A DNA stretch of 55,402 nt, from positions 1 through 55,402 of the IMG/VR virus record IMGVR_UViG_3300045988_154458. One strand, 5' to 3'. The DNA is from a virus. Numbering within the stretch: the stretch's first letter is position 1; every line of letters starts with the position of its first letter. This document shows positions 8,840 through 40,476 of the stretch, in pieces. Under the pieces are notes generated by a model. It did no database searches. It was not told where the DNA came from and saw only the letters and a list, made by a program, of their open reading frames with translations. The translations under genes and the position numbers were made by a program.

Positions 8840-9148
8840 TTATTTAGCCTCGCTTTCTAATATTTCATTGAAATTATTTACATATTTACTATATGAATCA
8901 TTAAAATCTTCTTTAAACTTGGTTAACCTGTTGTCAAATAGCCTAATATCTTCTTTAAAATCTTTTAGCTTGTAATAGTGTAGATAATTTACAGATAGCC
9001 CACTATTTAAATCAATAATATCAAAATCATTAAATTCGTTTTTATATATTCCAAATAAATTAGTTTTTGTTTTAAGTATATAGCCTTTTACTTTAATAGC
9101 TTGTTTTTTATTATTTTTCATGACTAGTGTATAAAATTCTTTTTTCAT
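8840..9148 (-). CDS. Hypothetical protein (C-terminus ...SEAK)
   Basis: 102-aa ORF. Junction GAGGTAAAATAATATG lies upstream. Confidence 0.55.
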   Translation of the reverse strand: MKKEFYTLVMKNNKKQAIKVKGYILKTKTNLFGIYKNEFNDFDIIDLNSGLSVNYLHYYKLKDFKEDIRLFDNRLTKFKEDFNDSYSKYVNNFNEILESEAK

Positions 9149-9149
9149 A

Positions 9150-9377
9150 TTATTTTACCTCATTTCTTTTTATAATTTCATTTAGTTGTAATTCTGTTGT
9201 TATCAATGTATTAAAGCTTTTTTTATCGTCGTTTGTCTCTAAATTGTATTGAATATCATTGATTATTAAGTCTATTATGTTATGAGCTAATTTTAATTGC
9301 TCTAGCAATGTGAAATCATCTCTTATTTGAAAAGCTTCATTTAGTAATGTATCATCATTTATATATTGTTCTTTCAT
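9150..9377 (-). CDS. Hypothetical protein
   Basis: Track ORF runs to 9392. ATG 9377 follows GAGGTGTTATAAG and abuts the stop at 9379. Confidence 0.55.
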   Translation of the reverse strand: MKEQYINDDTLLNEAFQIRDDFTLLEQLKLAHNIIDLIINDIQYNLETNDDKKSFNTLITTELQLNEIIKRNEVK

Positions 9378-9378
9378 C

Positions 9379-9609
9379 TTATAACACCTCACTGACTTTA
9401 TTAAATGGTATTGCGTATAATTTACTTATTTCATCCATTTTATTATATTGTTTGCTTGGTACTAATAAGCTGATATATGTATTATAGTCATTGTTTTTTC
9501 TACCCTCAATATAGTATCCATTGAATTCTTTGTTATATCCTGTTATTTTTAAAGTATAATCATTTACTTTTATAGTATCGTTTACTTTTAATTCTTCAAA
9601 TTTTTTCAT
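9379..9609 (-). CDS. Hypothetical protein
   Basis: 76-aa ORF. First gene after promoter 9679..9707. Confidence 0.55.
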   Translation of the reverse strand: MKKFEELKVNDTIKVNDYTLKITGYNKEFNGYYIEGRKNNDYNTYISLLVPSKQYNKMDEISKLYAIPFNKVSEVL

Positions 9610-9678
9610 TTTCTTTTCCCTTTCGTCCGCTTTCGCGGTTGCTTTTTATACAAGAAGTATAACTTATTTTGTAATTTA

Positions 9679-9707
9679 ATTATATCATATTATTATGTAT
9701 TAGTCAA
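9679..9707 (-). promoter_or_regulatory. Sigma-70-type promoter, conserved early family (TTGACT-N17-TATAAT)
   Basis: Minus strand reads ATTGACTAATACATAATAATATGATATAAT. The -35 is at 9702-9707 and the -10 at 9679-9684. Confidence 0.6.
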
Positions 9708-9724
9708 TAGTTTTTTATTTTTTT

Positions 9725-12373: not shown

Positions 12374-12448
12374 GCACTTGTAGTTTAAAGGCAAAATAAC
12401 AGACTCCAAATCTGTAAGATCAGGGTTCAAATCCTTGCAAGTGTGCCA
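12374..12448 (+). tRNA. trnW: tRNA-Trp (anticodon CCA)
   Basis: Hand fold: acceptor GCACTTG/CAAGTGT (G1-U72), D stem GTTT/AAAT, anticodon arm ACAGA-CTCCAAA-TCTGT, variable loop AAGAT, T arm CAGGG-TTCAAAT-CCTTG, discriminator G, encoded CCA. Confidence 0.8.
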
Positions 12449-33162: not shown

Positions 33163-34098
33163 ATGATTAAAGATCAAAAGTCTATTCGTGGGGGTATAGA
33201 AGATTTTCTATGCCCATTTACAGATATGTATATAACACAGGGTTCAAATAGTAATTTTTCACACAAAGGAATAATGGCTAACGATGTTAGAGGTACTCAA
33301 GTTGGAATCAAATATCCTTACTATGCGCCTTGTACTTGTAAATGTTTAAAAACATATCCATTATCAGGACAAGTAATGTGGCAATCTTTAAATAAAGTTA
33401 GATTTGCAAATGGAAGAATAGATTATGCAACTTTTATGACGGTTCATGATAATACAATGGATGCTAAAATAGGACAAGTTGTCCCTCAAGGAAGCCAATT
33501 AGGTAATATGGGAACAAAAGGTAATGCCACAGGAGTTCATTGTCATATAGAAGTAAGTCAAAGTGCAGATACCAGGTGGACTAAAAACCAATATGGAGTA
33601 TGGCATTTTAATAATGAATATGATCTAGATGATTGTTATTTCGTTGATAATACCAATATATTAAATGGTATGGGAGGTAATTGGAGAACAACAGATAAAG
33701 TGCCAGTAAATAACCCACAGCCTCAAGGTGCGGACCAAATACTTTACAAAGGTAGTAAAGTAAAATTTAATGGAGTATTTAAAGTAGATATTCTAAAAAG
33801 TCCATTGTCGAGTAATTTGTTCGGTTGTTGTCAACTAACAGGTTGCTCTTATAATTCATATAAAGCCGAAAAAGTAAAATCTTATCACTGGTTACCAACA
33901 GGGCCATTTGTAGAATGCGATGTGAATGGAAACCCTACAAAAGATCAAGTCCTAAGTGGTAGTAATTCATATGTTAAGAATGATAGCATTTATACTGTGG
34001 AAGATATAGACATAAACAGTAATTCCGCGAAACTTATTATAGATGATAGAGTAGTATGGGTATTTAGTAAATATTTATATGAAGTTAGTAATAATTAA
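33163..34098 (+). CDS. Endolysin: M23 (LytM-type) peptidase with C-terminal SH3-like wall-binding region
   Basis: GNATGVHCHIEV fits the M23 signature G..TG.H.H.E. Follows the holin genes. 311 aa. Confidence 0.75.
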   Translation: MIKDQKSIRGGIEDFLCPFTDMYITQGSNSNFSHKGIMANDVRGTQVGIKYPYYAPCTCKCLKTYPLSGQVMWQSLNKVRFANGRIDYATFMTVHDNTMDAKIGQVVPQGSQLGNMGTKGNATGVHCHIEVSQSADTRWTKNQYGVWHFNNEYDLDDCYFVDNTNILNGMGGNWRTTDKVPVNNPQPQGADQILYKGSKVKFNGVFKVDILKSPLSSNLFGCCQLTGCSYNSYKAEKVKSYHWLPTGPFVECDVNGNPTKDQVLSGSNSYVKNDSIYTVEDIDINSNSAKLIIDDRVVWVFSKYLYEVSNN

Positions 34099-34103
34099 TA
34101 AAA

Positions 34104-34139
34104 AATTATCGATTAAACATAATCGATAATTTTCTTTTG
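34104..34139 (+). terminator. Strong rho-independent terminator ending the late operon
   Basis: An 11-bp stem pairs AATTATCGATT (34104-34114) with AATCGATAATT (34121-34131), followed by TTCTTTT. Confidence 0.8.
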
Positions 34140-34352
34140 TTTTATTTTTACTTTACTTTTTCTTTATAAATTTTGTATTTTTTATTTAGCTTTTTAATAT
34201 ATAATTTAATCAGAAAGCAAGTTAATACTTAGTTTTCTGTTTACCTAACACGAAGAGGAGTGAATATCATTTTATTATATATAATAATATGGATTACTTC
34301 TCTATTTTTTTATGTTTGAGATGAGATAATTGTTAACTAAAGGAGTGATCAC

Positions 34353-34796
34353 ATGTATAACAATCCGTATGGTTTTAATCCATATATGAATCAAAGATTT
34401 CAAAATCAACCTAATAATCAACCTATACCTCAACAAAATATACAACCACCTATGCAACCTATACAACAATATTGTTCATTATTAGGAAAACAAGTCGATA
34501 GTATAGATGTTGTCAAAGCAACGGACATACCATTAGACGGAAGTACTTGTTATTTTCCATTAATCGATGGAAGTGCAATTGTTACTAAAAAATTACAAAA
34601 TGATGGTACTAGTAAAACAATAATATATAAGCCTGTTGAAAACGAAGAAGAATCATCAATAAAATATGCTACAATGACTGATATTGAAAAAGCTATAGAA
34701 AATATTGATTTAAGTGATTTAGATGATATAAAAGACGACATAAAAGATTTGAAACAATCTATAAAAGATTTAAAGAAAAAGAAGAAGGATGAATAA
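34353..34796 (+). CDS. Hypothetical protein with Q/N/P-rich N-terminus and acidic coiled-coil C-terminus
   Basis: MYNNPYGFNPYMNQRFQNQPNNQPIPQQNIQPPMQPIQQY... AAAGGAGTGATCAC precedes the ATG. Confidence 0.6.
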   Translation: MYNNPYGFNPYMNQRFQNQPNNQPIPQQNIQPPMQPIQQYCSLLGKQVDSIDVVKATDIPLDGSTCYFPLIDGSAIVTKKLQNDGTSKTIIYKPVENEEESSIKYATMTDIEKAIENIDLSDLDDIKDDIKDLKQSIKDLKKKKKDE

Positions 34797-34797
34797 T

Positions 34798-35022
34798 ATG
34801 AATCCAGTAAATATGTTAAAAGGTATGATGGGAATTAGTAATCCAAAAGATATGGCAATGAAAATGCTATCTCAAAATAACAATCCCATATTTAAAAATT
34901 TAATTGATATGGCAAACAAAGGCGACACAAAAGGTGTCGAAGATTTTGCTAGAAATTATATGAAAAGTCAAGGAAAAGATTTCGACCAAGAGTTTAATAA
35001 TTTCAAAGATATGTTTAAATAA
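34798..35022 (+). CDS. Hypothetical small protein
   Basis: Track ORF starts at 34789. ATG 34798 has better SD spacing (AAGGA, 9 nt). Confidence 0.5.
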   Translation: MNPVNMLKGMMGISNPKDMAMKMLSQNNNPIFKNLIDMANKGDTKGVEDFARNYMKSQGKDFDQEFNNFKDMFK

Positions 35023-35088
35023 AATATTTGGTTTTTAATATAATTTTGCAATTCCCAAGTATTTTAAATATAAGAAAGGAGAATTTAG

Positions 35089-35862
35089 ATGAGAGGAGAA
35101 AGTGGACTAACTGCTTCTGACGTTGCCCTATTATCTGGAAGAAACGGAAATAATGATGGTTTCGGAGATGGAACAGGTGCATGGTGGATTATTATCTTCA
35201 TCATCTTCGCATTCATGGGATGGGGAAGAAATGGTTTCGGAGGATTCGGCGGTGGAAACGGATCTGGTGCAACAGACAATTATGTACTAGCTTCTGATTT
35301 CGCAACAATTCAAAGACAATTAAGCGATGGTTTCAATGATTTAACAGCACAATCAAGATACATTCAAAATGGAATCTGTGATGGCTTCTATGCTATGAAT
35401 ACAAGCCTATTAAATGGTTTTGCTGGTGTTAATAATTCAATTATGACAAATGGTTATGAAACTAGAAATGCTATAAATAGTGTATCTAGTCAATTAGCAG
35501 ACTGTTGTTGCAAAACTCAAAGTGCTATTCAAGGAGTTAATTATAATCTAGCAACTAATGCTTGTAATTTACAAAACACAATGAATATGAATACTAGAGA
35601 TATAGTTGACACTGTTAATGCCAATTATCGTGCATTACATGATGAAATAGTCGCTAATAGAATTGAAGATAAGAACGCTCAAATCACTGCTCAACAAAAT
35701 GAAATTAACGCATTAAGATTGTCTGCCAGTCAGTCAGCACAAAACGCTTATTTATTAAGCGAATTAAAACCTTGCCCATCACCTAGTTACATAGTACCAA
35801 ACCCTAACTGTTGCTATAATTATCAAGTAACAAGTGGCTGCGGTGGATGTGGAAATTTTTAG
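35089..35862 (+). CDS. Gly-rich, Cys-rich membrane-anchored protein of unknown function
   Basis: N-terminus GRNGNNDGFGDGTGAWWIIIFIIFAFMGWGRNGFGGFGGGNGSG (one TM helix), an N/Q-rich alpha-helical middle, and C-terminus CCYNYQVTSGCGGCGNF. About 12 Cys in total. Confidence 0.6.
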   Translation: MRGESGLTASDVALLSGRNGNNDGFGDGTGAWWIIIFIIFAFMGWGRNGFGGFGGGNGSGATDNYVLASDFATIQRQLSDGFNDLTAQSRYIQNGICDGFYAMNTSLLNGFAGVNNSIMTNGYETRNAINSVSSQLADCCCKTQSAIQGVNYNLATNACNLQNTMNMNTRDIVDTVNANYRALHDEIVANRIEDKNAQITAQQNEINALRLSASQSAQNAYLLSELKPCPSPSYIVPNPNCCYNYQVTSGCGGCGNF

Positions 35863-35963
35863 TAAGACCTGATTACAGGAACTTGATTACAAGTGCTTAC
35901 TATTTTTAGAGATAGGAAAGCCCTATCTCTTTTTTAAATAATTTATAAGAAAGGAATGATATT

Positions 35964-36422
35964 ATGATACAAAGTTATCAAGAAACACCAGTTTTACTTG
36001 CTTCAAATTCTAGCCCTTTAACATTTTCTACGGATTGTATAAGAACAAGATGTGCTAATTGCTATGGTTTTCTTCAGCATTCACAAGGTTCACCACTTTA
36101 TAAGATTTTAAATGGTGGAAACTATGATGTTACTTTTAACGCAAATGTAACAAGTGCTACTGCTGGACAAGTTGCTTTAGGTTTATATATGGATGGAGTT
36201 CTATTGCCTGGTACGACTGTTATTGCTGATATAGCAACTGCTGGTGATTATGTAAATGTAGCATTTACTAAAACAGTACCAATTTGTTGCAGAGGGGACG
36301 CCACTTTAACAGTACAATCAGTACCTAGCGTGTTAACTGGTACAACTGCAACTGGAACACCAACTGCTACACAAATACCTTTATATCAAAATGCTAACTT
36401 TAGAATTAGCAAAAGATCATAA
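35964..36422 (+). CDS. Beta-sandwich protein, possibly C1q/TNF-like (BclA C-terminal-domain-like)
   Basis: The pattern LTFSTD...YKILNGGNYDVTFNANVTSATAGQVALGLYMDGVLLPGT...GDATLTVQS resembles exosporium BclA-type C-terminal domains. No collagen repeats. This rests on recall only. Confidence 0.35.
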   Translation: MIQSYQETPVLLASNSSPLTFSTDCIRTRCANCYGFLQHSQGSPLYKILNGGNYDVTFNANVTSATAGQVALGLYMDGVLLPGTTVIADIATAGDYVNVAFTKTVPICCRGDATLTVQSVPSVLTGTTATGTPTATQIPLYQNANFRISKRS

Positions 36423-36616
36423 TGAATACTGAAAACAATAACGAGTATTTATTTAATTTAATAAATATATTATCTTTTATTATTGGTATTGAAAATTTGA
36501 ATCTAAATGACAAACAAATCGAAAAGTTGGAAAATCATTTAAACAATCAAGATAAACAATATGAAGAGATAATAAGATTATTAAAGGAAGGAGGTATTTA
36601 TGATAGACAAAGTTAA
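36422..36616 (+). CDS. Hypothetical small protein
   Basis: 64 aa. TAATG overlap with the upstream gene. Confidence 0.5.
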   Translation: MNTENNNEYLFNLINILSFIIGIENLNLNDKQIEKLENHLNNQDKQYEEIIRLLKEGGIYDRQS

Positions 36617-37091
36617 AGAAAAAACAGAATATATAATAGAAGATATTCTTCAAGAAGAAATAACAGAAGATAATATTGACATGCTTGGAAAATTAATAGA
36701 TATTCATAAAGATATGGCAAATGAAGAATATTGGTGTAAAAAGGAGGAAATTATGATGTATAGAGACGATAGATATAATGACTATCCATCAATGAACTAT
36801 GGTGGAGGACGAAGAAGAGATAGCCGTGGTAGATACATGAACAGTGGTCGTGATAGACGTTACAGAGGTCACGATATGATTGATGATATGTATGAATCAT
36901 ATAGTAATTATATGGGCGATAAAGAAGAAATGAATCGTGGTAATTATGGGGCTAAAGACGACACTATGAAATCTCTTGAATATATGTTAGAATCTATGGT
37001 TGATTTTGTAGAAATGTTAAAAAAAGACACAAATTCACAAGAAGAAATGGATTTAATACGAAAATATACTAGAGAAATAAGTGAAATGTAA
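36600..37091 (+). CDS. Hypothetical protein with an R/G/Y/D-rich low-complexity core
   Basis: ...NYGGGRRRDSRGRYMNSGRDRRYRGHDMIDD... GGAAGGAGGTATTT precedes the ATG. Confidence 0.55.
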   Translation: MIDKVKEKTEYIIEDILQEEITEDNIDMLGKLIDIHKDMANEEYWCKKEEIMMYRDDRYNDYPSMNYGGGRRRDSRGRYMNSGRDRRYRGHDMIDDMYESYSNYMGDKEEMNRGNYGAKDDTMKSLEYMLESMVDFVEMLKKDTNSQEEMDLIRKYTREISEM

Positions 37092-37447
37092 TGTATAAAT
37101 ATTATAACAACAATGCTTTAGGATTATTTGAGAATGATTGTACTATAAGGGCGATAAGTCTTGCAACAGGTAATAGTTGGGATGATACATACCAACATAT
37201 GAGTAATTTGGCAAGGATTAAAGGAACTATGATGGACGATAGAGCATTTATAATTAATTATCTAGACGAACGATATAAAAAAGTACCTACATATAATTTA
37301 TCGGTCGGGGAAGTATCAGCAAAATACAACGATAATGTTATTCTTATAACAATGAATGGCCATATTGTTTGTTCTAAATATGGTGTAGTTTATGATAGTT
37401 TTGATTGTCGAGAAAGAAAAGCCGAGTATTGTTGGATTGTTAAATAA
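37091..37447 (+). CDS. Hypothetical protein, possible papain-fold cysteine peptidase/amidase
   Basis: Candidate Cys (ENDCTIRAIS), His (NGHIV) and Asp (VYDSFD) occur in the order expected for a small C39/NlpC-like fold. Weak call. Confidence 0.3.
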   Translation: MYKYYNNNALGLFENDCTIRAISLATGNSWDDTYQHMSNLARIKGTMMDDRAFIINYLDERYKKVPTYNLSVGEVSAKYNDNVILITMNGHIVCSKYGVVYDSFDCRERKAEYCWIVK

Positions 37448-37468
37448 GAAGATTAATTTCTTCTTTAT

Positions 37469-37545
37469 GGGTAGATACTCAAGCGGATTAAGAGGTTGGT
37501 CTGCAACACCAATATTCATGAGTTCGAATCTCATTCTGCCCTCCA
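37469..37545 (+). tRNA. trnC: tRNA-Cys (anticodon GCA)
   Basis: Hand fold: acceptor GGGTAGA/TCTGCCC (one G-U), D arm CTC(A)-AGCGGATTA-(A)GAG, anticodon arm TTGGT-CTGCAAC-ACCAA, variable loop TATTC, T arm ATGAG-TTCGAAT-CTCAT, discriminator T, encoded CCA. Confidence 0.85.
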
Positions 37546-37557
37546 TAATAAAAAAAT

Positions 37558-37582
37558 AACACCCTATTCATGGGTGTTTTTA
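37558..37582. terminator. Bidirectional terminator between convergent units
   Basis: AACACCC (37558-37564) pairs with GGGTGTT (37572-37578), followed by TTTAT. The stem covers the stop codon of the minus-strand gene 37564..37809. Confidence 0.6.
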
Positions 37583-37809
37583 TAATTGTATATTTTTGAG
37601 AATAAAATTTTCATATCATTACTATATGTTGTAGTTGATATCCCCAGATCCATACAAGTTTGAACTCTACTTACTTTATCATAATACTTCATAATCAAAT
37701 TAATTTCATATTCTGTCAATTCCATATTTTTACATAATTCTTCCACATTATTACGACAAAAACATCTTATCTGTCGTTTTAAAACGTGATAAGTACTCTT
37801 ATCAATCAT
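37564..37809 (-). CDS. Small sigma-70 region-4-like HTH protein (candidate transcription regulator)
   Basis: 81 aa. LTEYEINLIMKYYDKVSRVQTCMDLGISTTTYSNDMKILFSKI fits the r4 pattern L..rE..vi.l.y.....s..eia..lgiS..tv... Confidence 0.5.
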   Translation of the reverse strand: MIDKSTYHVLKRQIRCFCRNNVEELCKNMELTEYEINLIMKYYDKVSRVQTCMDLGISTTTYSNDMKILFSKIYNYKNTHE

Positions 37810-37927: not shown

Positions 37928-38737
37928 TTAAAACCCTAATTCAATTTTATATTGAATTGGGGTTTTATATTTTAAAGAATAACTTGGTCTTTCATTGTTA
38001 TAATAGTAAATATATTCTTCAATAAGTTTAGGAACATCTTTGCAATGTTTTAAATTAAAATCAACAATTAATTCTTCTTTAATCCAACCATTTAATGATT
38101 CATTAACTGGATTATCAGTTGGTGTTCCTGCTCGACTCATTGAACGAGATATGTTATAATTTTCTAGAAGCTTATTATAAGCTTTAGACGAATAAACTGA
38201 ACCTTGATCTGTGTGAAGAATAATCAAATCATCAGTTTGTTCTTTTTTTATGCGGTTTAATACTTGATTTAATCCATCATAATATGACCTTGTATCTCCT
38301 TTTCTAGATACTAAACCATATCCAACTATTTCTTTATTCCAAGCATCAAAATACATCGTTAATTCATAATATGTTCTGCCAACCCAAAATGCAGTCATAT
38401 CTGAAACTATTACTTCAAATGGTCTTGATAAATATTTCCATCCATTCCATACTAGATTATTAAATTTTTCATGTTCTTCATCAGGTTTCTTCCATTGATA
38501 ATGTTTCCCTTTTGACTTAATACCTTCATATTTACAACATAAATGAACATGGTTATCAGACCAAACTATACCATAATGTAATCTTGCATAAGCATTAATC
38601 CATCTATATCCATGTGATGGATGCTTTTCGTGTATCTCTTTTATTAATTTTATATCGGATTGTCTTGATATCATTTTTTCTGTTGGGTGCTCCTGTCTGT
38701 ATTTCCATTTATAATATCCAGACCTACTAATAGACAT
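37928..38737 (-). CDS. IS3-family transposase OrfB (DDE/rve), expressed as an OrfAB fusion by -1 frameshift
   Basis: The orfB frame is open upstream to the A7 site and reads ...YGVKLLCEYMSISRSGYYKWKYRQ. DDE-type motifs include HTDQGSVY. Confidence 0.85.
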   Translation of the reverse strand: MSISRSGYYKWKYRQEHPTEKMISRQSDIKLIKEIHEKHPSHGYRWINAYARLHYGIVWSDNHVHLCCKYEGIKSKGKHYQWKKPDEEHEKFNNLVWNGWKYLSRPFEVIVSDMTAFWVGRTYYELTMYFDAWNKEIVGYGLVSRKGDTRSYYDGLNQVLNRIKKEQTDDLIILHTDQGSVYSSKAYNKLLENYNISRSMSRAGTPTDNPVNESLNGWIKEELIVDFNLKHCKDVPKLIEEYIYYYNNERPSYSLKYKTPIQYKIELGF

Positions 38738-38784
38738 ATATTCACATAATAATTTAACTCCATATTTATCTTTATATTCATATA

Positions 38785-39144
38785 TTATTTTGTATTCTTG
38801 TCGAATATAGTAACGAATTCCTTTTCGGCACCAACTCCTTTCACCATGTAACCTTTTTTTAATCGAGCAATCTCAATATCTTTCTTCATCAACTCTAATT
38901 CAAGTTCTTCTATTTTATTTTTTGGCTTTTTTAAATGCAATCCAGTACTTAAACTCTTATGTTTTCCAGTATTTGATTTTAATCCTTCAATACCTTTTTC
39001 TTTATAAGAATAATACCATTTTGATAATACACTCTTAGAAATATCATGTTTTTTACTCATAGTATGAAATCCATATCCATTATTAATCATTTCTAAAACT
39101 AGTTTTTCTTTTTCTTCTGGTGTTCTCATTATATTTTTACTCAT
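38785..39144 (-). CDS. IS3-family transposase OrfA (HTH)
   Basis: MSKNIMRTPEEKEKLVLEMINNGYGFHTMSKKHDISKSVLSKWYYSYKEKGIEGL is typical of IS3 OrfA. The slippery sequence TTA AAA AAA GGT is at 38854-38862. Confidence 0.85.
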   Translation of the reverse strand: MSKNIMRTPEEKEKLVLEMINNGYGFHTMSKKHDISKSVLSKWYYSYKEKGIEGLKSNTGKHKSLSTGLHLKKPKNKIEELELELMKKDIEIARLKKGYMVKGVGAEKEFVTIFDKNTK

Positions 39145-39222: not shown

Positions 39223-40476
39223 TCACTTCAAATTGAGTTCTTTTATACTATCACGTAGTTTATATTTTTTCTTTTGAATACTAGGAACAGAATAATTTAA
39301 TTTTGTTGAAATCCATTTTTCACTATATCCATCTACATAAAATAACTTTCCAATAATATAATCAATACTATTTTTATCAGTAATATTAAGCACAATATTA
39401 TCATACACTTCAATAGTCATACCTCTATATAATTTTTTATTTTTATTATCAACAAAGAAACTGGCAATATAGTTTAATAATATACCTAACAAAACAGAAA
39501 TAATTAGTGATATATTACTAGGTACAGTTATTCTATTTAAACAATAATACGAAATGTTAGAAATAACAAAGCATGATAATGCTGTTTTCATATGAAATGG
39601 TTTTCCAAATAATTTTTTATTCAACCAAAAACTACATAATATAATTACACATTCTATAAAAGTATCATTTAGAAAAGCTATAAATAAAATGACAAATACT
39701 GTAAATATATTCCAAAGTAAATACAACGGTATGTATATCATATTTGTTAATTTATCTACTTTATTTTTACTTTTATTATTTTGATATGCGTTTTGCAACT
39801 TTTTCGGCAAACTCTTTAATAAAGTCTGTAGGCGCAAAAATGAACCAACTACCATATCCCATAGCGAATTACCTCCCATCTGAAAAAATAATTTATAAGC
39901 AATTACAGATAACATTATATAATCAAAATTTAGTATAATATTAGCTATTCCACTGTGTATATAATTTTTACAATTAATAAAAGGAATATTTCTAATAATA
40001 ACACTAATAAATTGAAATAATAAATTAATTATACAATATAACCAATAGTTGCTTATGTGATGTTTACACAAGTTGTTTTTCTTCACAAATTTAATATATA
40101 CAATTTCTAACATAAATAACCATAATAAATCTGTAAAAATAAATATAAAAGGCATATTATAAGTATATTTTAAAAATTGAGATATTATACTTAAAGGCAT
40201 AGTTATTAATGTAAATATCTTCATTGTCTTACTGTTGTCGGCACATGATATACTTAAAATAATATATGTGTATAAAGTTAATGTTATCCCATACCATAAC
40301 ATTTGTAAATGATATTTATTGAAAAACAAATCAATCGATATTAAGATTTTATTATTATCATCTAACCCAAAATAATTTAAACCACATATTTTTAAAATAA
40401 ATATAATGCCTAATATTATAAAATAAGTAGATAATGTACTTGACATTATCTTATCAAGATCTTTCTTCATAACCAA
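39223..40476 (-). CDS. Polytopic membrane protein with C-terminal sigma-70 region-4-like HTH
   Basis: 417 aa with about ten hydrophobic segments by eye. C-terminus ...SIDYIIGKLFYVDGYSEKWISTKLNYSVPSIQKKKYKLRDSIKEL. The last two codons and the stop lie inside the IS terminal repeat. Confidence 0.6.
   Translation of the reverse strand: MVMKKDLDKIMSSTLSTYFIILGIIFILKICGLNYFGLDDNNKILISIDLFFNKYHLQMLWYGITLTLYTYIILSISCADNSKTMKIFTLITMPLSIISQFLKYTYNMPFIFIFTDLLWLFMLEIVYIKFVKKNNLCKHHISNYWLYCIINLLFQFISVIIRNIPFINCKNYIHSGIANIILNFDYIMLSVIAYKLFFQMGGNSLWDMVVGSFLRLQTLLKSLPKKLQNAYQNNKSKNKVDKLTNMIYIPLYLLWNIFTVFVILFIAFLNDTFIECVIILCSFWLNKKLFGKPFHMKTALSCFVISNISYYCLNRITVPSNISLIISVLLGILLNYIASFFVDNKNKKLYRGMTIEVYDNIVLNITDKNSIDYIIGKLFYVDGYSEKWISTKLNYSVPSIQKKKYKLRDSIKELNLK

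Follow-up and report, generated by a model that had tools for sequence, protein, structure and literature searches.

Among described systems, those closest to the locus reported here are phage morons, the trimeric BclA/C1q-TNF proteins, the clan CA (papain-like) peptidases, the head-stalk-anchor fibres (YadA/NadA, reovirus sigma1 and the adenovirus fibres) and phage bitopic coiled-coil proteins such as the Rz-type i-spanins and phi29 p16.7. The locus is a cassette of seven genes (p1 to p7) followed by a tRNA-Cys gene, and it forms the final 3.2 kb of the plus-strand late block of a viral DNA of 55,402 nucleotides (nt), positions 1 to 55,402 of IMG/VR record IMGVR_UViG_3300045988_154458 (the whole stretch is hereafter called the window). 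We find that the cassette is a widespread, self-contained accessory unit that moves horizontally among phages of gut Firmicutes, and that its central protein, p3, is also found in Bacteroides phages. As the best explanation, we propose that this accessory cassette encodes a stalk-and-head complex at the membrane that serves phage competition, by superinfection exclusion or counter-defence. The unit and its architecture are the part of this explanation that we hold with high confidence, while its functional part, a role in competition or counter-defence at the membrane, is a tentative and rather doubtful suggestion; for the combined explanation, we would put the chances at somewhat less than even.

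As in morons, the cassette is bracketed by terminators, lies at the lysis-integrase junction in temperate relatives and has a mosaic distribution, and its presence or absence is polymorphic between near-identical phages. Morons are also expected to have their own promoter and terminator, and here there are terminators on both sides, but upstream only a TATAAT hexamer without a clear -35 element is seen. By contrast, the deviating base composition of morons is not found, the cassette unites a tRNA with five to seven genes, and phages where no integrase was seen in the regions examined carry it as well.

The individual proteins recall known ones to different extents. For instance, p4 resembles the BclA/C1q-TNF trimers through a weak match to Pfam BclA_C, PDB profile matches and Foldseek matches to BclA, Cbln1/C1q, EDA, BxpB and ExsFA; it differs from them in its score, under the Pfam gathering cut-off, in its low structural similarity scores, in having no collagen-like stalk in the same polypeptide, in belonging to a phage cassette instead of a sporulation regulon, and in being replaceable by another family. 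With clan CA peptidases, p7 shares the order Cys...His...Asp and weak fold matches that include Josephin, OTU, UfSP and PLpro, but there is no significant Pfam, PDB sequence or fold match, its relatives are uncharacterised phage proteins and, to our knowledge, it is smaller (118 amino acids) than known clan CA families.

Like head-stalk-anchor fibres, p3 combines a terminal anchor with a long Asn/Gln-rich coiled coil of 11-residue periodicity, the small separate beta-sandwich of p4 is a possible head, and depositors have used the labels "viral fiber" and "spike". However, p3 has a short N-terminal hydrophobic segment as its anchor where these fibres use a beta-barrel or a domain that binds the virion, the putative head and stalk are two separate polypeptides, and no sequence or profile similarity was found. 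Additionally, p3 has in common with Rz-type i-spanins, phi29 p16.7 and other phage bitopic coiled-coil proteins an N-terminal hydrophobic segment, a coiled coil, Cys residues and its closeness to lysis genes; it differs from them in lacking a lipoprotein partner, in its mostly Gram-positive hosts, in its acidic N-tail and in being dispensable, and no homology was detected. The predicted folds (a C1q/TNF-like sandwich, a papain-like triad and a hendecad coiled coil) are familiar ones, with membership in a named family established for no protein. As no multi-gene system was matched in PADLOC, Pfam, NCBIfam, PHROG functions, PDB or the literature, in our view the cassette represents a new type of accessory system in phages.

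Organisation of the cassette

The components of the cassette in the window are as follows.

34353-34796, plus strand: p1, 147 amino acids
34789-35022, plus strand: p2, 77 amino acids (74 from the start at 34798)
35089-35862, plus strand: p3, 257 amino acids, the central protein
35964-36422, plus strand: p4, 152 amino acids
36422-36616, plus strand: p5, 64 amino acids
36600-37091, plus strand: p6, 163 amino acids
37091-37447, plus strand: p7, 118 amino acids
37469-37545, plus strand: tRNA-Cys (GCA), 58.6 bits with the Rfam tRNA model, starting 21 nt past the p7 stop codon and ahead of the terminator

The seven co-directional open reading frames (ORFs; 34353-37447), the tRNA-Cys(GCA) and the two flanking terminators all lie where an earlier reading of the letters alone, the original prediction, had located them. 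The sequence features that it quoted are also present: the Q/N/P-rich N-terminus of p1, the hydrophobic WWIIIFIIFAF and the C-terminal CCYNYQVTSGCGGCGNF of p3, and the GGGRRRDSRGRYMNSGRDRRYRG core of p6. Its start for p2 (34798) gives a protein of 74 amino acids, the same length as the homologues in related phage contigs (L002-L005), while its Cys counts need correction, from about 12 to 10 in p3 and from 6 to 5 in p4.

Because all these ORFs are conserved in other loci, they are more than chance reading frames. Those of p1/p2, p4/p5, p5/p6 and p6/p7 overlap or abut, which suggests that these pairs are translationally coupled, and spacers of 66 nt and 101 nt set p3 apart from its neighbours. 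Cys codons make up 2.25% of the cassette and 1.5% of the remaining genome, with several early genes reaching 3-4%. A search of Rfam over 33.9-38 kb gave the tRNA as its sole match.

Conservation as a unit

Loci were gathered via p3 (80 viral loci and 80 loci from genomes or metagenome-assembled genomes (MAGs), with p3 identities of 34-91%), and their ORFs were searched iteratively with jackhmmer. Among 169 phage or prophage loci, which include many close relatives and are therefore non-independent, with several cut by contig ends and with ORFs called mechanically, p1 is present in 161, p6 in 147, p7 in 135, p4 in 132, p2 in 84 and p5 in 12. The genes of the module are always on the same strand, most commonly in the order p1-(p2)-p3-p4-(p5)-p6, where p7 precedes p1 or follows p6.

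The co-occurrence of the genes in other genomes had been proposed as a check on the idea that they form one unit, and this idea is borne out, as p1, p3, p4, p6 and p7 keep a fixed order in more than 100 diverged loci. The proposal of a seven-gene unit is right as to this co-occurrence and too broad as to the number of genes: the conserved core is only p1, p3, the protein in the fourth position (slot 4, occupied by p4 in the window) and p6, with p7 at either end, while p2 is found in about half of the loci and p5 is restricted to close relatives.

Phage contigs of ~37 kb (L002-L005) share all seven genes and their order, placed after a different endolysin gene (GH25-LysM) and again followed by tRNA-Cys, with a mosaic pattern of identity to the window: 87-98% for p2 to p5 (95% for p2) and 44-50% for p1, p6 and p7. 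Among near-identical relatives of ~55 kb, p3 is the most divergent cassette protein (92.6-97.3% identity, compared with 97.4-100% for the others). Diversifying selection on p3 was considered and dropped, since the differences are clustered and conservative and resemble allele exchange.

Regarding hosts, the full cassette is carried by Ceridwen, an isolated phage of Butyrivibrio (B. fibrisolvens), and the Clostridium perfringens phage CPD1 has p1-p2-p3 plus an alternative slot-4 protein. The hits in genomes are all MAG contigs from gut, mostly phage-sized, and their labels are mostly Clostridia, Bacilli, Lachnospiraceae and Oscillospiraceae. In Bacteroides phage C3_41T2LP and in crAss-like Suoliviridae, the p3 homologue is the sole recognisable cassette gene, and it was labelled by the depositors as "outer capsid protein/viral fiber" in C3_41T2LP and as "spike protein/glycoprotein" in the crAss-like cr52_1.

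When the seven proteins were scanned against Pfam, NCBIfam, PHROGs and PADLOC, only PHROGs of "unknown function", the weak BclA_C match and noise were obtained, so the earlier statement that no characterised system is recognisable here still stands. The names given to the homologues in the source databases are all "hypothetical protein". A literature search found no description of the cassette, and a paper on new families of hendecad coiled coils (J Struct Biol 2023) may already cover the p3 family.

Some variations within these loci are also worth recording. The p3 homologue of cr52_1 (L007, 3587-4510) has two in-frame stop codons under translation table 11; stop-codon recoding occurs in some crAss-like phages and would fit these stops. 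In five loci (L019, at 8895-9716, L072, L130, L163 and L166), a Cys-rich ORF of 220-350 amino acids lies between p3 and the next gene. Additionally, 13 loci contain an HNH_3/NUMOD4 homing-endonuclease gene inside the cassette (e.g., L106:6444-6944), and these insertions suggest that the DNA of the cassette is a homing target shared by co-infecting phages.

Genomic position and dispensability

The position of the cassette, or of its p3 gene, differs among phages.

After the lysis genes: the window, the ~37-kb contigs (L002-L005) and Ceridwen
Between the holin/endolysin genes and the integrase gene: L052 and L035
Upstream of the endolysin gene (Amidase_2 endolysins among these): L019, L021 and L027
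Between the genes of the minor capsid protein and the scaffold/major capsid protein: a 13-locus clade that includes Dulem virus 35
Among tail genes: crAss-like cr52_1 (p3 homologue)
Among early or recombination genes: CPD1 and C3_41T2LP

The description of a "post-lysis" island is consequently true of the phage in the window but is not a property of the cassette. The claim that the genes are cargo and not core phage functions is supported by these varied positions and, particularly, by an insertion/deletion polymorphism between ~95%-identical phages of C. perfringens. In the phiCP39-O family, CPD1, PMQ04, XP41-N3 and HMD-PC1 carry p3, and the matches of phiCP39-O, phiCP26F, phiCP13O, phiCP34O and phiCP9O to the CPD1 region cover 66-76% of it with 92-96% identity. 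In phiCP39-O and phiCP13O, 1.4 kb of unrelated sequence stands in place of the cassette locus of CPD1 (L088, 4384-8121; p1, p2 and p3), with flanks that are ~95-98% identical, and the hidden Markov models of the cassette have no match in these two loci. Phages of the phiCP39-O type are plaque-forming isolates, and phiCP39-O and phiCP13O lyse their hosts normally. The replacement indicates that, in this lineage, the cassette is dispensable for infectious virions and for lysis.

The same distribution bears on a different explanation, in which the cassette would encode an optional virion appendage, with trimers of p3 as a head or neck fibre, p4 as its distal knob, and p1, p6 and p7 as assembly or maturation factors. 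The cassette is co-directional with the late genes in the window and in most loci, and such an appendage would fit the position between capsid genes in the 13-locus clade, the position among tail genes in cr52_1 and the "spike" and "viral fiber" labels. TNF-like jelly-rolls are typical fibre knobs, a hairpin follows p3 as it does major structural genes, of which this arrangement is typical, and the partner proteins p1, p4, p6 and p7 have no signal peptide when read by eye. Nevertheless, the cassette crosses unrelated types of capsid and tail, including those of siphoviruses and crAss-like phages, and it is located in the early region of CPD1 and C3_41T2LP. Its absence from ~95%-identical relatives of CPD1 and the very hydrophobic, Trp-flanked N-terminal segment conserved in the p3 family are further points against an appendage, which we regard as rather unlikely.

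The central protein p3

From its N-terminus, p3 consists of an acidic tail, a hydrophobic anchor (GAWWIIIFIIFAFMGWG) between Gly-rich linkers, a hendecad stretch, a CCC triplet, a Pro-rich linker and a Cys-rich tail. It is a member of phrog_16490 (E = 2e-52), a family of unknown function, and its relatives number at least 7873 among 90%-identity clusters and 1741 representatives among 50% clusters; the 150 matches listed from these 1741 are all of 90-333 amino acids, with a single-domain layout and no domain fusions. Searches of PDB with its sequence and profile returned only coiled-coil noise.

In an alignment of 28 homologues, the N-tail (S..DVA...GNNG) is moderately conserved and is followed by the hydrophobic core GAWWIIIFLIF..GWG, a long N/Q-rich region, an invariant CCC, a heptad-like ANRIEDKNAQI.AQQNEINALRLAASQ, the Pro-rich linker and, usually, a Cys-rich tail. 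The triplet (residues 139-141) is present in 162 homologues out of 162. Both marks of a hendecad coiled coil, a periodicity near 3.67 residues and indels in units of 11, are found in p3: the hydrophobicity of residues 63-180 has its dominant spectral peak at 3.65 residues (11/3), rows of 11 bring the hydrophobic positions into register, and three indel blocks of the alignment (A3) are each 11 columns long. Many positions in the coiled coil are Asn or Gln.

The hydrophobic core, of 14-17 residues and flanked by Trp, is conserved across the family, and the tail preceding it is net acidic (3.5 D/E compared with 1.1 K/R). According to the positive-inside rule, such a tail mildly favours an N-out/C-in orientation, in which the coiled coil would be in the cytoplasm, beside the other proteins without signal peptide.

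This orientation is relevant to the possibility of a lysis or egress accessory, in which p3 would act at the membrane in the manner of an i-spanin or as a modulator of holin or antiholin. The cassette adjoins holin and endolysin genes in the window and in many loci, the crAss-like p3 homologue is near a gene annotated as "LysB/FtsL-like", and the combination of hydrophobic N-segment, coiled coil and conserved Cys recalls Rz-type i-spanins. Spanins, however, pair a type II membrane protein with the gene of an outer-membrane lipoprotein, and this pairing is not found: the acidic N-tail argues against N-in/C-out, no lipoprotein partner was seen (p2, p4 and p5 have no lipobox when read by eye), and the hosts appear to be mostly Firmicutes, which for the most part have no outer membrane. 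Since the cassette can also precede or follow the lysis genes or be far away from them, and is replaced in phiCP39-O and phiCP13O, we consider a lysis function quite improbable.

p4 and the exchangeable slot 4

The resemblance of the 152-amino acid protein to BclA and C1q-TNF jelly-rolls, which had been guessed from its sequence pattern, is now supported by three weak but concordant tests. Firstly, Pfam BclA_C (PF18573) matches p4 with E = 2.3e-4 and 21.5 bits, below the gathering cut-off of 38, and two close homologues (P0124 and P0202) carry a precomputed match to PF18573. Secondly, the p4 profile matches five BclA chains in PDB (E = 0.055-0.96) over the whole domain. Thirdly, a Foldseek search of PDB with the AlphaFold 2 (AF2) model retrieved BclA, Cbln1/C1q, EDA/TNF, BxpB, ExsFA and F-BclA with template modelling (TM) scores of 0.37-0.46, and the top ~30 matches, with E from ~1e-3 to 5e-2, all belong to the BclA/C1q/TNF superfamily. 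In this model, the predicted local distance difference test (pLDDT) is ~80 at residues 50-152 and 65 overall, and the N-terminal ~50 residues, which contain Cys25, Cys30 and Cys33, are unmodelled. The evidence for a beta-sandwich of BclA-C/C1q/TNF type in the C-terminal ~100 residues of p4 is, thus, weak but consistent. There are no collagen-like GXX repeats in the p4 sequence.

In ~25 loci, slot 4 is occupied by a different family, of ~130-150 amino acids with 5-10 Cys, starting with MSxCIKNCRLC. No homology to p4 could be detected (hhalign probability of 0.5%), and no related entry was found in PDB or Pfam. We considered whether an N-terminal CxxxCxxC docking motif, co-varying with the tail of p3, could be common to the slot-4 proteins; this was rejected, as only the alternative family and a few variants of p4 have the motif in regular form, and Cys is missing from some p3 tails.

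A possible consequence of the BclA likeness is lysogenic conversion, in which components resembling those of exosporium or spore coat (a BclA-like nap and Cys-rich cross-linked layers) would be added to the spore of the host, as the original prediction had entertained. The best matches of p4 (BclA-C, BxpB, ExsFA and F-BclA) point in this direction, Cys-rich, low-complexity proteins without signal peptide recall coat assembly in the mother cell, and a Q-rich/K-rich p1 together with the Cys-His-Asp of p7 could in principle, and speculatively, be a substrate and its transglutaminase. This idea is disfavoured by the full cassette in a Butyrivibrio fibrisolvens phage and by p3 in Bacteroides phages, as Butyrivibrio and Bacteroides do not sporulate. 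Additionally, p4 has no collagen-like repeat, an unrelated family replaces it in ~25 loci, and the cassette is carried by phages with no integrase found in the regions examined, all of which leaves the addition to spores very improbable.

p7, a predicted papain-like protein

The earlier guess of a papain fold for the 118-amino acid protein fits both an invariant Cys-His-Asp pattern and a confident model. In an alignment of 121 sequences, N6, N8, D16, C17, H91, D102 and W115 are invariant, and in a more diverse one of 23 sequences, invariance extends to C17 and, nearly (at least 90%), to H91 and D102. Thus, p7 has the putative catalytic residues in the order Cys-His-Asp, with N6 and N8, upstream, as candidates for the oxyanion hole. 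The AF2 model (pLDDT of 92.5) has a helix at 16-26, opened by Cys17, and strands at 83-88, 91-96, 99-102 and 110-116, with His91 and Asp102 on strands that follow the Cys17 helix. This secondary structure fits that of clan CA peptidases, in which the Cys opens a helix packed against the sheet with the His, and p7 is confidently modelled as a minimal papain-like fold with a Cys-His-Asp triad.

The protein belongs to phrog_3754. Nothing was found in Pfam or NCBIfam, the profile search of PDB gave E of at least 1.1, and the best Foldseek match in PDB has E = 0.39. In BFVD, fifteen entries match the model with E of up to 0.001 and TM up to 0.83; nearly all of them are uncharacterised, and those with a stated organism are from phages that infect varied hosts. 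BFVD also contains a Josephin-domain protein with a weaker match (E = 0.034).

A papain-like enzyme could also belong to a cargo of toxins or bacteriocins set free by lysis; p7 would then be a leader peptidase resembling C39, and the Cys-rich proteins would be what acts on other cells. This reading draws on the position after holin and endolysin genes in the window, on the small Cys-rich proteins, on a motif order in p7 that recalls C39 peptidases and on the recurrence of AgrB-domain genes nearby. Contrary to its expectations, no ABC transporter, modification enzyme or immunity gene was recognised with Pfam, NCBIfam and PHROGs, no signal or leader peptide was seen by eye, and there is no match to a toxin family, the single match to MakB having E = 0.2. 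Moreover, p3 is a conserved coiled-coil protein of 257 amino acids and not a precursor peptide, and p7 has no significant match to a peptidase family. The earlier suggestion of a secreted toxin or bacteriocin therefore found no support, and we give it only a very small probability.

Genes similar to p7 are also found alone in other phages. For instance, the one in Bacillus phage Izhevsk (L171, 4974-5369) adjoins a Ser/Thr kinase gene and is near an ocr-like anti-restriction gene, and the one in Geobacillus phage GBK2 (L170, 4986-5375) is located at the late/early boundary. Lak megaphages carry p7-like genes too, and none of these standalone cases has p3 or p4. Such contexts hint at an independent role of this enzyme family in host takeover or counter-defence.

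The remaining proteins

The N-terminus of p1 is of low complexity and rich in Q, N, P and Y; it is followed by a small, conserved central domain (GKxVDSIDVVKAxDIPLDGSxSYFP...) and a C-terminal coiled coil rich in K, E and D. The protein is a member of phrog_21718 (7e-11), of unknown function, and has no match in PDB or Pfam. Conserved N- and C-terminal segments surround the low-complexity core of p6, which is rich in R, G, Y and D; this protein belongs to phrog_28802, also of unknown function. Pfam scans of each sequence in the p1 and p6 alignments yielded no consistent match. By eye, p2, whose start overlaps the end of p1, appears to be helical, and p5, whose start overlaps the stop codon of p4, appears to have a hydrophobic stretch after ~10 residues and a charged C-terminal half.

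Transcription signals and the tRNA-Cys gene

Several hairpins delimit or interrupt the cassette.

34102-34133, plus strand: terminator after the endolysin gene, a 14-bp AT-rich stem with a T-tract (-12.5 kcal/mol, z = -4.9; 0 of 200 shuffles as stable)
34211-34240, plus strand: leader hairpin (-11.9 kcal/mol, z = -4.6), directly after a TATAAT at 34200-34205
35908-35930, plus strand: hairpin and T6 after p3 (-13.2 kcal/mol, z = -3.9)
37558-37578, both strands: bidirectional terminator, a hairpin common to the cassette and to the convergent minus-strand gene at 37564-37809

The first of these ends the lysis/late operon and was missed by the consensus scanner because it has too few G-C pairs. 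The leader and post-p3 hairpins are additions to what had been described. An arrangement similar to that of the leader is seen in L020, and L002, L008 and L009 have a terminator-like hairpin and then a TATAAT-like hexamer; the TATAAT and the leader hairpin are possibly a promoter plus attenuator.

The hairpin after p3 recurs in other loci. When the spacers between p3 and the next gene were compared (87 distinct ones), 78 were found to fold at -10 kcal/mol or lower and 75 to have a run of at least four T, with a median of -35 kcal/mol for ~114 nt. We infer that this structure acts as an attenuator or as a stem-loop that stabilises the transcript, and its conservation suggests that p3 would be made in excess over the products of the downstream genes. 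Such an excess-subunit layout is known from the major subunits of pilus or phage structural operons.

The tRNA-Cys gene is probably co-transcribed with the cassette, since it lies 21 nt past the p7 stop codon and before the terminator. In all loci together, ARAGORN identified 70 tRNAs, 36 of them tRNA-Cys, and these 36 are all within 1 kb downstream of p7 and on its strand. They correspond to 36 of the 60 loci where the cassette ends with p7 and the flank is available, with p3 identities to the window of 42-93%. In the other gene order, when p7 is not last, a tRNA-Met, Tyr, Ile or Gln follows instead. The co-selection of this tRNA with Cys-rich genes, proposed from their adjacency, is thus partly upheld: the link is recurrent, but the demand for Cys codons does not by itself explain it. 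Codon demand as a sufficient reason was dropped because the enrichment in Cys is modest (2.25% compared with 1.5%).

Proposed role of the cassette

In the explanation that we prefer, the membrane stalk-and-head complex, p3 would be produced in excess over the downstream proteins, would insert into the cytoplasmic membrane of the host through its single hydrophobic segment and would form an oligomeric, probably trimeric, stalk. The Cys sites of p3, at the triplet and in the tail, would staple the oligomer through metal ions or disulfides, and the exchangeable slot-4 protein would cap the stalk as a head. Additionally, p1 and p6 would help in assembly, and p7 would process, mature or cross-link a component, or attack a target in the host, while the tRNA-Cys would sustain translation of the abundant p3, with its clusters of Cys. 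The cassette would act on the infected or lysogenic cell and not on the virion, as suggested by its movement between phages with unrelated virions and by its swappable head: the unrelated capsids and tails argue against a specific docking site on the virion, and the swappable head suggests a variable target.

A more ambitious version of this proposal, which we judge unlikely, is that of an undescribed phage organelle, with an abundant, membrane-anchored, trimeric hendecad stalk, an invariant ring of Cys joined by metal or disulfides, exchangeable jelly-roll heads, a minimal papain-like maturation enzyme and its own tRNA-Cys to keep up synthesis, traded by phages of gut Firmicutes for competition or counter-defence at the membrane of the cell.

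Several observations weigh against the membrane complex and its role in competition. The positions in the late region and in the head module, together with the "viral fiber" and "spike" labels, fit a role in the virion equally well. The hydrophobic segment of p3 is short for a membrane span, and its charge bias toward N-out/C-in is weak. PADLOC revealed no relative among defence systems; apart from noise, it gave a weak match, through the coiled coil, to the tail of ZorA (E = 0.0016). As standalone p7-like genes exist in other phages without the cassette, p7 may be a frequent neighbour of the other genes and not their partner. Regarding the autonomy of the unit, the consensus scan found no strong sigma-70 promoter upstream of p1 and no convincing -35 element, and the base composition is not distinctive, with a guanine-cytosine (GC) content of 0.25-0.33 over 34-37 kb, inside the range of the rest of the window.

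In any case, a cassette that is common yet dispensable probably encodes a recurrent and selectable trait of the gut virome, for which the exclusion of competitors, counter-defence and the remodelling of the host envelope are candidates. Its central protein represents a large family, covered by no Pfam family and without a name in databases, that is present in temperate phages and in phages with no integrase seen. A tRNA-Cys tied to one gene set makes it testable what phage-borne tRNAs serve and, likewise, the cassette makes it testable how non-heptad, Cys-stapled coiled coils are used in nature. The natural pairs with and without the cassette (CPD1 compared with phiCP39-O or phiCP13O) allow direct functional testing.

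The phage genome and the surroundings of the cassette

The window is a tailed-phage genome of low GC (~28%). Its near-identical relatives (L174-L177) are IMG/VR contigs of 55,130 and 54,917 bp whose two ends split one 181-amino acid gene. This points to complete genomes of ~55 kb with circular permutation, and the window is probably also a whole phage genome. The plus strand at 10.4-37.5 kb encodes the late genes, including the large terminase, an SPP1-type portal, a lambda-E-type major capsid protein, tail genes and two small membrane proteins. The minus-strand blocks flanking it contain replication genes (a D5-type primase-helicase, a Prim-Pol, a helicase and a YqaJ-domain protein). Neither the cassette region nor the late genes had a megablast match among GenBank phages. 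Other features of the window are listed below.

12374-12448: a second tRNA gene, tRNA-Trp (CCA), upstream of the large terminase gene
33163-34098, plus strand: M23-peptidase endolysin, upstream of the cassette
37564-37809, minus strand: small sigma-70-region-4-like protein, convergent to the cassette, with a weak DUF1492 match just under the Pfam cut-off
37928-39144, minus strand: IS3-family insertion sequence beside the cassette, just past the convergent DUF1492 gene
39223-40476, minus strand: multi-span protein of 417 amino acids with an AgrB (quorum-sensing peptide maturation) domain and, by eye, a C-terminal tail resembling a helix-turn-helix
51885-52622, minus strand: ORF of 245 amino acids whose match to RtcB RNA ligase is confined to the C-terminal half (profile positions 217-425 of 426)

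Proteins similar to sigma-70 region 4 are also found next to the cassette elsewhere, as a Sigma70_r4-like gene of 83 amino acids is immediately upstream of p7 in ~42 loci (e.g., L052:6644-6895), and these flanking proteins could be a dedicated regulator of the cassette. The IS3 element comprises orfA (38785-39144), with HTH_Tnp_1, and orfB (37928-38737), with rve, rve_2, rve_3 and HTH_21, and has a 17-bp inverted repeat at 37929-37967. Thirteen related loci likewise have an AgrB-domain gene shortly before the cassette (e.g., L102:5416-5988). Finally, the RtcB-like ORF may represent a tRNA-repair gene that has been truncated or split, in a phage with tRNAs of its own.

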